Shown here: one piece after another, positions 46,674 to 48,218 of the stretch | Position numbering within the stretch: position 1 is the first letter of the stretch | Layout: every line of letters begins with the position of its first letter | Assembly (NCBI RefSeq): GCF_030013595.1 | Contig: NZ_CP122768.1 | DNA length: 64,000 nt | Source: Escherichia coli | Lineage (GTDB): Bacteria; Pseudomonadota; Gammaproteobacteria; Enterobacterales; Enterobacteriaceae | Reading direction: 5' to 3' (one strand) | The notes under the pieces: model-generated | Told to the model about the DNA's origin: nothing | The model's input: only the letters and a program-made list of their open reading frames with translations | Databases searched by the model: none | Program-made: the position numbers and the translations under genes

Positions 46674-47399
46674 GTGAAAAAGACTTTTATGCTTTTAATT
46701 TGCATGCTAATAAGCAGCCCTGTCTTTGCAACAAAACCGGACGCGCCGAATAAGCCGGAGATGAATATCTTCGAGCTCGGCATCAGACCCGATCGGGACA
46801 ACGACTTTGCAGACGTGGCCAGACAGACGATTTCCGCTTCGGTTGATCATGAAGCTGGTACACTGGCGATGTATGCCCTGAAACGCAGCGACAATTCAGG
46901 TCAGGCATTCATGTTCGAACTCTATGAAAATGAGCGTGCTTATCGCAAACATCTCAATGCCGCCCCATACAAAGCATTCGCTGCTCGTGCACCTGACATT
47001 ATTGACAGGAAGAAGAAAATTACCCTGGAGCCACAGTTTCTGGGCGACAAACACATCATACCGAATGAACGAACTATCAATAATCTGGTGATCGTCGAAG
47101 TAAAGCCTGAATTTCAGAGCGAATTTAGAAACATCGTCCTTCCTGAAATGGTCGAGTCGCTCAAAGTAGAGAAAGGCGTGTTAGCCATGTATGCCGGTAC
47201 AGATTCAGAGACTCCAAAACGATGGTATTTCTATGAGATTTACGCCAGTGAGGAGGATTATCAACTGCACCGACAAACGCTGCACTTCCTGGATTACCTC
47301 AGGCAAACGGCGCATATGAGCGCCAGGAAGGACGCAATCCCGGTAAAACCGGTATTTCTTCGTAACAAAGGCGGAATCAAACAGGAGCCGCAACGTTGA
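46674..47399 (+). CDS. Secreted protein with two ABM (antibiotic-biosynthesis-monooxygenase/Dabb) domains
   Basis: Signal peptide MKKTFMLLICMLISSPVFA; two repeats of an ABM-like core (…AMYALKR…FMFELYENERAYRKHL… and …AMYAGTD…YFYEIYASEEDYQLHRQT…). Confidence 0.55.
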   Translation: MKKTFMLLICMLISSPVFATKPDAPNKPEMNIFELGIRPDRDNDFADVARQTISASVDHEAGTLAMYALKRSDNSGQAFMFELYENERAYRKHLNAAPYKAFAARAPDIIDRKKKITLEPQFLGDKHIIPNERTINNLVIVEVKPEFQSEFRNIVLPEMVESLKVEKGVLAMYAGTDSETPKRWYFYEIYASEEDYQLHRQTLHFLDYLRQTAHMSARKDAIPVKPVFLRNKGGIKQEPQR

Positions 47400-47414
47400 C
47401 CAGTAAGGATTAAC

Positions 47415-48218
47415 ATGAAAAGCGTACTTGCAGCAGCGGCTATGTCGCTTGTTATTTCTGATTTTGCCAATGCTGAGGAAACAAGAGGTAAAGCTATGAT
47501 GAAAATAGAACCGTCAGCGATTTCGGAAGCTGATATTCGTTCCGTCTCACCGGCTCTCGCGCGCTTTGGTCGCGAAGCTATTACTGAAGATCTGTGGACA
47601 CGCGACGCCCTCTCACCGAGGGATCGTAGTGTGGTGACCGTCGCCATGCTGATTGCCCGCAACCAGCCTGCCGAGCTTAAGCACTATATTGACGTCGCTC
47701 TCGATAGCGGCGTGACGCCAGCGGAATTATCAGAAATCATTACCCATCTGGCGTTCTACTCAGGTTGGCCAAATGCAATGTCAGCCGTCAGCGTGACCAA
47801 AGCAGTATTTGAAACTCGTGGCGTCACGGCAGATGCACTTCCTGAAGCTTCTCCGGACCTGCTTCCTCTCAATCAGGAAGCAGAAAAGCAGCGTTCAGAG
47901 ACAGTGGAAAAAAATGTTGGCCCAATATCTCCAGGCCTGGTTAAATTCACTGCTGATCCACTCTTCCTGGATCTCTGGCAAAGACCCGCGCTGAAACCCC
48001 GCGACAGAAGCCTGATTACGGTCAGCGCCTTAATCGCATCCGGACAGAGCGCGCAGATTGGCTATCACCTCAATAGAGCAATGGATAATGGACTTTCTGT
48101 TGAGGAAGCTGGTGAGATCGTTACCCAGGCCGCCTTCTATGCTGGCTGGCCAAACGCATTTACCGCTGCTCCGGTTGTGGGAGAGGTGCTAAACAATCGA
48201 TCATCGAGTAAAAGGTAA
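47415..48218 (+). CDS. Secreted protein with two carboxymuconolactone decarboxylase (CMD/AhpD-like) domains
   Basis: Signal peptide MKSVLAAAAMSLVISDFANA; duplicated CMD-family motif (ITHLAFYSGWPNAMSA / VTQAAFYAGWPNAFTA). Confidence 0.6.
   Translation: MKSVLAAAAMSLVISDFANAEETRGKAMMKIEPSAISEADIRSVSPALARFGREAITEDLWTRDALSPRDRSVVTVAMLIARNQPAELKHYIDVALDSGVTPAELSEIITHLAFYSGWPNAMSAVSVTKAVFETRGVTADALPEASPDLLPLNQEAEKQRSETVEKNVGPISPGLVKFTADPLFLDLWQRPALKPRDRSLITVSALIASGQSAQIGYHLNRAMDNGLSVEEAGEIVTQAAFYAGWPNAFTAAPVVGEVLNNRSSSKR

Follow-up and report, generated by a model that had tools for sequence, protein, structure and literature searches.

Enzymes of the ABM family are O2-dependent, cofactor-free oxygenases or isomerases, and CMD proteins of the PcaC type are decarboxylases acting on lactones; the parent families of both need no NAD(P)H, ATP, metal or organic cofactor. 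Exported enzymes built from tandem ferredoxin-like domains (dimeric alpha+beta barrels) are found among the DyP/EfeB peroxidases and in chlorite dismutase, and provide a periplasmic precedent for a duplicated barrel. A pairing of ABM and Flavodoxin_2 proteins also has a precedent in Escherichia coli, in the genes mdaB (a Flavodoxin_2-type quinone reductase) and ygiN (an ABM quinol monooxygenase). This quinone reductase–quinol monooxygenase pair was reportedly described by Adams and Jia in 2005.

Chains with two ABM domains along their full length have been solved by structural genomics as 'putative monooxygenases' (3F44, Lactobacillus acidophilus; 3MCS, Fusobacterium nucleatum FN1347). Two CMD domains in one chain are found in 4G9Q, a Sinorhizobium meliloti protein named '4-carboxymuconolactone decarboxylase'. 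Proteins of this type were grouped as 'dualCMD' by Cheng et al. 2017 (PMC5615479), who describe 4G9Q and 2Q0T as homotrimers mimicking the canonical CMD hexamer, and the tandem CMD protein TvCMD1 as having no CxxC motif. Export of dualCMD proteins is not discussed in that paper, and the term 'signal peptide' does not occur in it. It was the only relevant paper found in a literature search on periplasmic or secreted CMD or ABM proteins (including 4G9Q, and co-mention of both annotations), which returned no functional or localisation study.

The window analysed here is a 64,000 nt stretch of an E. coli contig, and carries two adjacent genes, ORF1 and ORF2, in which these two architectures are each combined with a predicted Sec signal peptide (Table 1). 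Both genes lie at the coordinates of the first-pass annotation, on the + strand. They appear to close an accessory operon under LysR control: just 15 nt, including a Shine-Dalgarno sequence, separate the ORF1 stop from the ORF2 start, the six genes upstream lie on the same strand, and the LysR gene is divergent. The gap before ORF1 is 115 bp, and promoter and terminator scans of positions 41000–49300 gave counts not above those of shuffled sequence. In the upstream set, the Flavodoxin_2 gene encodes a KefF-like NAD(P)H oxidoreductase by Pfam and NCBIfam. The 103-aa hypothetical protein had no match in Pfam, NCBIfam or PDB sequences, and is unrelated to a YCII-like gene that occupies the equivalent place in other loci.

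Table 1. Features of the ORF1/ORF2 locus, with positions in the window.
Feature	Position	Strand	Basis
LysR-family regulator, presumed operon controller	40965..41864	-	299-aa ORF, divergent; RefSeq calls the homologous gene a LysR family regulator
Six upstream cytoplasmic genes, in order: 103-aa hypothetical, DJ-1/PfpI, aldo-keto reductase 1, truncated Amidohydro_2, Flavodoxin_2, aldo-keto reductase 2	42001..46558	+	Co-directional with ORF1/ORF2; Pfam and NCBIfam
ORF1, tandem ABM-ABM, predicted exported, 241 aa from GTG start	46674..47399	+	
ORF1 predicted Sec signal peptide MKKTFMLLICMLISSPVFA	46674..46730	+	Cleavage predicted before TKPD; heuristic, orthologue conservation, pLDDT 56–62, outside fold
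ABM domain 1 (aa 29–125)	46758..47048	+	Model secondary structure; LsrG 3qmq aligns to aa 30–114; half-half alignment
ABM domain 2 (aa 135–231)	47076..47366	+	Best Pfam stretch 141–209; 3kkf and 2gff align to aa 138–227; model
Shine-Dalgarno AAGGA	47405..47409	+	5 nt ahead of ORF2 ATG; read directly from sequence
ORF2, tandem CMD-CMD ('dualCMD'), predicted exported, 267 aa	47415..48218	+	
ORF2 predicted Sec signal peptide MKSVLAAAAMSLVISDFANA	47415..47474	+	Cleavage predicted before EETRG; heuristic, conservation, residues 1–28 pLDDT below 50
CMD domain 1 (aa 38–134)	47526..47816	+	Invariant R69-D-R-S72, E107, H111; 2af7 aligns to aa 39–133; model
CMD domain 2 (aa 154–266)	47874..48212	+	R196-D-R-S199, E234; H111 equivalent is Q238 in the E. 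coli clade; model

The Pfam ABM domain (PF03992) matches two stretches of ORF1 (E 1.7e-25; 89.4 bits, cut-off 23.1), and the two halves align to each other with 25% identity (E 1e-12). The AlphaFold model has two ferredoxin-like halves (residues 29–125 and 135–231, pLDDT 93), and superposes on the solved tandem ABM proteins 3F44 and 3MCS with TM scores of 0.84/0.96 and an rmsd of 1.3 Å. These two entries are also full-length sequence matches (E 3e-26 and 5e-19, respectively), residues 28–236 of ORF1 aligning to residues 6–214 of 3MCS by phmmer. ORF1 is a member of the tandem-ABM family, with two ABM domains in one chain that align over the full length and form an intramolecular pseudo-dimer, and E82, H93, W184 and Y208 are among the polar and aromatic positions that are near-invariant across the family alignment. 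Haem-dependent relatives were weak fold matches only, and DyP/EfeB and chlorite dismutase differ from ORF1 in binding haem. Although PGAP names ORF1 a 'putative quinol monooxygenase', it is not of the YgiN type: YgiN, of ~100 aa, has one domain and forms a homodimer in the cytoplasm, and ORF1 is tandem with a predicted signal peptide. No characterised ABM enzyme was matched at equivalog level in the NCBIfam search, and the LsrG model (NF007791) scored 55.6 bits against a curated cut-off of 135. What ORF1 does share with MdaB/YgiN is the pairing of a gene for a Flavodoxin_2-type NAD(P)H quinone oxidoreductase with an ABM-domain gene.

ORF2 contains two copies of the CMD domain (PF02627; E 4.5e-37, 126.4 bits against a cut-off of 23, two stretches), which align to each other with 43% identity (E 1e-31). 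Its AlphaFold model consists of two helical CMD halves (residues 38–134 and 154–266, pLDDT 86) and fits 4G9Q with TM scores of 0.84/0.94 and an rmsd of 1.7 Å. Over aa 25–262 it is about 50% identical to 4G9Q (E 2.2e-73), with which it shares the two-domain architecture over the full length, and this places ORF2 in the dualCMD group. The polar motifs RDRS and E..H..Y..W are retained in both halves across phyla, the E. coli clade differing from 4G9Q in having a glutamine (Q238) where the second-half histidine is conserved. ORF2 also differs from 4G9Q in its placement in a reductase operon beside an exported ABM-ABM gene. The domain duplication proposed for both proteins in the first-pass annotation is borne out by the Pfam stretches, the half-half alignments, and the superposition of the two-half models on 3F44/3MCS and 4G9Q.

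Signal peptides were called by a heuristic (n-region, hydrophobic core, AXA-type site) combined with conservation in orthologues, using a fimbrial subunit and a chaperone as positive controls and the six upstream operon proteins as a negative comparison. By this heuristic ORF1 and ORF2 score like the positive controls and have the features of Sec substrates cleaved by signal peptidase I, while the full pattern of basic n-region, N-terminal hydrophobic core and AXA-type site is absent from all six upstream proteins. From the GTG at 46674, ORF1 has an MKK n-region (+2) and 17 uncharged residues up to a predicted cut at VFA|TK, giving a signal peptide of 19 aa followed by a 9-aa linker ahead of the fold; 3F44 and 3MCS, in contrast, have no N-terminal extension and start, as cytoplasmic types, 5–8 residues before strand 1. 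ORF2 begins with MK and a 13-residue uncharged core, with a predicted cut at ANA|EE. The N-terminal 27–28 residues of both models are of low confidence and not part of the fold. Signal sequences of the orthologues are conserved, substitutions remaining hydrophobic. Signal peptides of the ORF2 type extend across Enterobacterales, with equivalent forms in Alpha-, Beta- and Gammaproteobacteria and Acidobacteria, and native 4G9Q likewise begins with one (MKRLFAPLIGVMMMTASNAGA). Neither protein has RR within its first 15 residues, the twin-arginine motif by which EfeB, unlike ORF1, is exported through Tat. Both also lack a lipobox of the form [LVI][ASTVI][GAS]C. A lipoprotein anchored at Cys10 of ORF1 was rejected, as the candidate lipobox (LLIC) is poor, with Ile at -1, and the cysteine is replaced by W, Y, F or G in orthologues; ORF2 has no cysteine. 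The proposal that both proteins are secreted, and that each holds two copies of a domain otherwise found as a homodimer, is upheld, with export as a prediction.

Database forms that seem to lack signal peptides are the 240-aa CMD2 and 212–231-aa ABM2 forms, among them a 212-aa ABM2 beginning MNIF, and CMD2 calls beginning after the signal peptide. Of these, the two kinds examined were rejected as natural variants. The 240-aa E. coli CMD2 arises from a TAG stop at codon 21, and the short ABM2 forms (MLLICML.../MLISSPVFA...) are truncated start calls that still carry the c-region of the signal peptide.

The distribution of exported forms and their gene neighbourhoods was surveyed in 80 loci and 150 representatives. 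At least 57 of the 80 sampled species loci have a CMD-CMD relative with a signal peptide or lipobox, the lipobox variants occurring in Pseudomonas, Yersinia and Rouxiella, and nearly all relatives of 4G9Q start with a signal peptide; the figure for full-length tandem-ABM relatives is about 40–50%. A LysR gene flanks 65/80 CMD-CMD loci. The gene order is LysR, hypothetical, Flavodoxin_2, aldo-keto reductase (AKR), CMD2 in Klebsiella and LysR, Flavodoxin_2, AKR, ABM2, CMD2 in Erwinia, and the complete nine-gene set is present in Serratia. Two distant loci with exported ABM2 have the orders LysR, Flavodoxin_2, AKR, ABM2 and LysR, AKR, Amidohydro_2, two Flavodoxin_2, YCII, ABM2, and the ABM-ABM proteins in unrelated contigs with the same neighbourhood are only 35–52% identical. 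In Rhizobium rhizogenes and Pseudomonas, CMD2 has genes for the 103-aa hypothetical, DJ-1 and Amidohydro_2 proteins nearby. Natural fusions also occur (signal peptide-CMD2-ABM, signal peptide-cupin-CMD2 and signal peptide-esterase-ABM2). In the loci sampled, ABM-ABM directly beside CMD-CMD was seen only in Enterobacterales; elsewhere each is found without the other, so adjacency is not a general rule. Since the two are independent in most taxa, they need not share the same substrate molecule.

The recurrence of a LysR, Flavodoxin_2 and aldo-keto reductase set with exported ABM-ABM and/or CMD-CMD in Klebsiella, Erwinia, Serratia and unrelated contigs supports the link to the upstream reductases suggested in the first-pass annotation. 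The same annotation had called the arrangement unusual. The pair is real but fairly ordinary: tandem ABM (3F44, 3MCS) and dualCMD (4G9Q; PMC5615479) were already established, structures of both have been solved, and exported forms are known and widespread.

The RefSeq start of ORF1 is an internal ATG at 46704, which lies inside the signal peptide and leaves a 231-aa form beginning MLISSPVFA. If this codon or the ATG at 46689 were the true start, the hydrophobic N-terminus would be an artefact of ORF extension and ORF1 an ordinary cytoplasmic tandem ABM protein like 3MCS and 3F44. The PGAP annotation, the weak Shine-Dalgarno sequence (AAAAGA) before the GTG in this strain, and the cytoplasmic nature of about half of tandem ABM relatives fit such a reading, but it is very unlikely given the orthologues, in which the upstream GTG reading is conserved and ATG 46704 is not. 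Orthologues have Ile or Leu in place of Met11 (ATG 46704), and one has Val in place of Met6, while the N-terminal MK(K/N) is kept in nearly all full-length calls. AAGGA sits ahead of the GTG in a related E. coli-type locus (L006), and the Erwinia orthologue starts with ATG behind a strong Shine-Dalgarno sequence and encodes a full signal peptide of 25 aa. The RefSeq form would also carry a meaningless half h-region and AXA site before the fold, whereas cytoplasmic relatives begin 3–8 residues before strand 1, right where the fold of predicted mature ORF1 starts. It is rather improbable, too, that the island is decaying in this strain and that the pair are evolutionary leftovers with no current role. 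Signs of decay do exist. The amidohydrolase is truncated here compared to a 391-aa version in L006, the neighbouring AraC-type gene is a fragment, and in the adjacent fimbrial operon a 1-bp indel splits the usher. In a sister lineage, CMD2 is interrupted by a stop codon immediately after its signal peptide. The region is missing from K-12, and no more than about 9% of complete E. coli genomes retain it. Against these, both ORFs are intact here, 276 genome records have them at 99% identity or more, and their orthologues across Enterobacterales retain 70–90% protein identity, signal peptides included.

With respect to function, the first-pass annotation had labelled the CMD protein AhpD-like and suggested a redox or detoxification role for the pair in the periplasm. 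The CMD family does include AhpD and other CxxC peroxidase-related proteins, and AhpD structures are among the weak fold matches of ORF2, but its best matches are PcaC-type and not AhpD-type domains, and the tandem CMD protein TvCMD1 likewise has no CxxC (PMC5615479). A periplasmic antioxidant or thiol-redox protein working through CxxC cysteines is extremely improbable, and the lack of cysteines in both mature proteins (ORF2 has none at all, hence no CxxC) rules out redox chemistry of the AhpD type. Nor is ORF2 at all likely to act in the beta-ketoadipate pathway as a true 4-carboxymuconolactone decarboxylase (PcaC), a name found on homologues at JGI and NCBI. The sequence and fold of each half are of the PcaC kind (TIGR02425, E 1.8e-33; 2AF7-type hexamers), but the score of 115.3 bits is split over two domains and falls below the curated cut-off of 155.7, and the protein is duplicated and predicted to leave the cytoplasm, where the pathway operates. 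The annotation of the 25.7 kb locus (about 12 kb each side) includes no pca genes, the neighbours being reductases and LysR rather than pcaBDGH. The two proteins might instead be exported non-enzymes, either binding or sequestering a small hydrophobic ligand or serving as periplasmic sensors or chaperones. Many ABM/Dabb and CMD members have no demonstrated catalysis, and the second CMD half has lost its H111-equivalent histidine in the E. coli clade. This is unlikely in view of the polar motifs persisting in both CMD halves across phyla and the near-invariant E82, H93, W184 and Y208 of tandem ABM; moreover, the genomic partners are enzymes, and the esterase and cupin fusions suggest pathway chemistry.

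Taken as a whole, the locus is probably best explained by a pair of Sec-exported, periplasmic pseudo-dimers in a LysR-controlled, two-compartment detoxification or salvage module. Both products would be soluble in the periplasm. ABM-ABM would form, in a single chain, the two-domain alpha+beta barrel that single ABM proteins build as homodimers, and CMD-CMD would be the building block of a trimer mimicking the hexamer that CMD proteins with one domain form. The cofactor-free chemistry of the parent families makes them suited to the periplasm, where the pair may process a small quinonoid, phenolic or lactone compound. The fraction or products crossing the inner membrane would be taken by the cytoplasmic KefF/MdaB-type NAD(P)H quinone oxidoreductase, the two aldo-keto reductases, DJ-1/PfpI and the amidohydrolase, with the LysR regulator as the sensor of the module. 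ORF1 and ORF2 themselves are most likely periplasmic enzymes that need no cofactor and belong to a module, under LysR control, for detoxifying quinones, carbonyls or lactones. A wider proposal, put forward here tentatively, is that 4G9Q-type dualCMD proteins collectively make up an extracytoplasmic enzyme family and form, with exported tandem ABM, an unrecognised periplasmic, cofactor-free arm of quinone/carbonyl/lactone detoxification that works together with NAD(P)H reductases in the cytoplasm.

The practical value of these results is modest, and current understanding is not overturned. They correct the RefSeq start of ORF1, which had hidden its signal peptide, and show that neither 'AhpD-like' nor 'PcaC' is a fitting label for the CMD-CMD protein. 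They also draw attention to dualCMD as a very large family that is structurally solved and functionally blank, with thousands of homologues in soil and plant-associated bacteria, mostly predicted to be exported and LysR-linked. If the extracytoplasmic dualCMD arm is real, thousands of proteins would be misnamed in databases under labels such as '4-carboxymuconolactone decarboxylase' or 'quinol monooxygenase'. If periplasmic detoxification is correct, it would represent cofactor-free quinone/lactone chemistry in the periplasm, and could bear on the tolerance of enterobacteria and rhizobacteria to plant or microbial toxins.

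The first-pass annotation had described two adjacent genes, each encoding a duplicated domain; both genes are present and the duplication is confirmed. By HMM search, Pfam ABM matches two stretches of ORF1 (E 1.7e-25) and CMD two stretches of ORF2 (E 4.5e-37), while self-alignment of the two halves gave 25% identity for ORF1 (E 1e-12) and 43% for ORF2 (E 1e-31). AlphaFold models show two ferredoxin-like beta-alpha-beta units in ORF1 (residues 29-125 and 135-231; pLDDT 93.1) and two all-helical units in ORF2 (residues 38-134 and 154-266; pLDDT 85.6). They superimpose on the solved tandem proteins 3f44/3mcs (ORF1, TM 0.84/0.96) and 4g9q (ORF2, TM 0.84/0.94, rmsd 1.7 A), which are also the top full-length sequence matches.

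Features of the window discussed in the text
Feature	Coordinates	Strand	Remarks
Low-G+C stretches	32000-38000; 58000-60000		G+C 37-40%, vs ~50% in the rest of the window
103-aa hypothetical	42001-42312		
Amidohydro_2 gene	44031-44964		truncated
ORF1, tandem ABM	46674-47399	+	N-terminus from GTG 46674: MKKTFMLLICMLISSPVFA, then TKPD; n-region net +2, 17 uncharged residues, V-x-A at -3/-1 (rule-based)
ORF2, tandem CMD	47415-48218	+	N-terminus: MKSVLAAAAMSLVISDFANA, then EETRG (rule-based)
Q238 of ORF2	48126-48128		
AraC fragment	48633-48887		corresponds to yneL
Fimbrial usher	50999-53651		two overlapping ORFs, 149 aa and 754 aa

Export of both proteins, also proposed previously, is upheld by signal peptides predicted from sequence with a rule-based check and by comparative data. 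Both ORFs score on a par with the positive controls, the fimbrial subunit and chaperone encoded downstream; the same check did not find the full pattern in the six upstream operon proteins, nor a twin-arginine motif in ORF1 or ORF2. In both models the N-terminal 27-28 residues have low confidence and stand apart from the fold. Among 39 aligned tandem ABM proteins, the cytoplasmic ones, including relatives of the solved structures, begin 3-8 residues ahead of strand 1, and the others have an N-terminal extension of 20-40 residues with a hydrophobic core. It is highly likely that ORF1 and ORF2 are exported tandem-domain proteins.

RefSeq/PGAP starts ORF1 at an internal ATG (46704; 12105 in the homologous locus of strain NRZ14408), giving a product that begins MLISSPVFA and halving the signal peptide. 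From sequence comparison this is very probably a mis-call, because L006, the related locus of the E. coli-type assembly GCA_902837665.1, has Ile at that position and other orthologues have Leu or Ile, one orthologue has Val in place of the Met at 46689, an N-terminal MK(K/N) is common to nearly all full-length calls, AAGGA precedes the GTG in L006, and the Erwinia persicina orthologue has an ATG, preceded by a strong Shine-Dalgarno sequence, and a signal peptide of 25 residues. The Shine-Dalgarno sequence ahead of the GTG in the window (AAAAGA) is weaker. Database entries for the protein come in lengths of 231, 236 and 241 aa. ORF2 starts 15 nt past the ORF1 stop, with a canonical AAGGA 5 nt 5' of its ATG.

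The architectures had been called unusual, which they are not. Tandem CMD proteins are a recognised group, named dualCMD, with 1,202 sequences reported and no known function; 4G9Q and 2Q0T are cited as homotrimers imitating the canonical CMD hexamer (PMC5615479). Exported forms are frequent in both families. The native Sinorhizobium protein behind 4G9Q opens with a signal peptide, and among its 120 closest cluster representatives nearly every one does too; database forms that are shorter result from truncated start calls and retain the signal end (A-x-A before QQP). A scan of one genome per species gave more than 570 tandem CMD relatives; among the best 80 of these, from Enterobacterales, Rhizobiales, Burkholderiales, Pseudomonas, Acidobacteria and others, at least 57 loci encode an N-terminal signal peptide or canonical lipobox, and a minority appear cytoplasmic. 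Tandem ABM proteins are a smaller family, with 494 representatives at E <= 1e-3, and divide about equally into signal-bearing and cytoplasmic members. Both ORFs belong to known, structurally solved families without functional characterisation.

Two variants of the CMD-CMD family were seen. Lipoprotein versions, with canonical lipoboxes (e.g. LLSAC, LMSGC) and not a signal peptidase I site, occur in Pseudomonas, Rouxiella, Yersinia, Acerihabitans and Mangrovibacter (loci L053, L056, L057, L058, L061, L065 and L068). In a sister lineage (the 46 sequences of cluster P0015; L006 8921-9003), a TAG at codon 21, exactly past the signal peptide (DFANA), means that the protein is called as a 240-aa signal-less form from MMKIEPS; the gene is either a pseudogene or encodes a form re-targeted to the cytoplasm.

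Several more specific identities were considered. The AhpD-like redox role suggested for ORF2 is not borne out, as ORF2 has no cysteine and an AhpD-type CxxC is impossible. PcaC is the other candidate for ORF2, which scores 115.3, below the curated cut-off of 155.7; the NRZ14408 annotation shows no pca genes nearby, and export would part PcaC from its cytoplasmic pathway. ORF1 falls well short of LsrG (55.6 vs a cut-off of 135) and matches no other equivalog in NCBIfam, so that ORF1 is called 'quinol monooxygenase' purely by analogy with its family. Nor is ORF1 a lipoprotein: its only cysteine (C10) lies in a lipobox of poor quality, and orthologues have W, Y, F or G at this position. Across 27 diverse tandem CMD sequences, R-D-R-S and E...H..Y..W are invariant in the first half, including the His (H111), and are repeated in the second. 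Most relatives also keep the second-half His; in the clade of E. coli, Klebsiella variicola, Erwinia and Pantoea it is Gln (Q238), and there this half may have degenerated catalytically.

The window is E. coli chromosomal DNA, and the 1.7-kb stretch with both ORFs is found at >=90% identity in 496 of 5,426 complete E. coli genomes and at >=99% in 276 genome records. As annotated in NRZ14408, the order is hipBA, a divergent LysR regulator, a hypothetical, a DJ-1/PfpI-type amidotransferase-like gene, an aldo-keto reductase, an amidohydrolase fragment, an NAD(P)H-dependent oxidoreductase, a second aldo-keto reductase, 'putative quinol monooxygenase', 'carboxymuconolactone decarboxylase family protein', an AraC-type fragment and a fimbrial operon. 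In K-12 MG1655 the AraC fragment (yneL) directly follows hipA, then a truncated ydeT, so the LysR-to-CMD cluster is an accessory segment without a K-12 counterpart; compared with window 40965-48887, K-12 lacks this cluster and also the fimA-like gene, the chaperone gene and the 5' part of the usher. The usher is intact in NRZ14408. Relative to that strain one base is inserted at window position 51416, which would make the usher a frameshift pseudogene unless it reflects a sequencing error. The low-G+C stretches may be horizontally acquired; that at 32000-38000 lies upstream of, and partly overlaps, the autotransporter gene region annotated in NRZ14408. The Amidohydro_2 gene is a 186-aa ORF vs 391 aa in L006, with ~340 bp lost and the flanking stretch diverged; the remnant shows a ~91 bp difference from NRZ14408.

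The suggested functional link to the upstream reductases holds, because the genomic context recurs across loci. Exported tandem CMD or ABM genes end the arrays LysR, hypothetical, Flavodoxin_2, aldo-keto reductase (AKR), CMD2 in Klebsiella variicola and LysR, Flavodoxin_2, AKR, ABM2, CMD2 in Erwinia persicina, and Serratia plymuthica has the entire nine-gene set. Exported ABM2 proteins only 52% and 35% identical lie in LysR, Flavodoxin_2, YCII-like, AKR, ABM2 and in LysR, AKR, Amidohydro_2, Flavodoxin_2, Flavodoxin_2, YCII, ABM2, respectively. In the flanks of the best 80 of the >570 CMD2 relatives, LysR is present at 65 loci and an aldo-keto reductase at 20. The 103-aa hypothetical, without a match in Pfam, NCBIfam or PDB sequences, is conserved (58-83% identity) in Serratia, Rhizobium rhizogenes, a Rhizobiales isolate and two Pseudomonas species, within 10-kb CMD2 flanks with DJ-1/PfpI and often Amidohydro_2; all three lie in these flanks in R. 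rhizogenes and Pseudomonas species, and directly upstream of CMD2 in P. asturiensis. Natural metagenomic fusions (P0288, P0348, P0377) join a signal peptide to CMD2-ABM, cupin-CMD2 or esterase-ABM2, the esterase being an HGGG-type alpha/beta-hydrolase. ABM2 and CMD2 were seen side by side only in Enterobacterales; in other taxa each is found without the other but with partners of the same sort.

Of the first-pass interpretation, export and the reductase link stand, and rarity and AhpD-like redox chemistry do not. Catalysis in both parent families needs no nucleotide cofactors, so periplasmic work is plausible. Two domains in one chain would allow unimolecular assembly of an obligate pseudo-dimer after unfolded export by Sec. 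The cytoplasmic partners, presumably co-regulated, are of classic quinone and carbonyl detoxification types: a KefF/MdaB-type NAD(P)H oxidoreductase, a pair of aldo-keto reductases, a DJ-1/PfpI protein and an Amidohydro_2 enzyme of decarboxylase or lactonase type. The pairing mdaB-ygiN is a known precedent for Flavodoxin_2 with ABM. On the favoured reading, the cluster would form a two-compartment, LysR-sensed module for detoxification or salvage of a quinonoid, phenolic or lactone compound, a function that we give about an even chance; the whole package, exported tandem proteins within a detoxification or salvage module, is somewhat probable.
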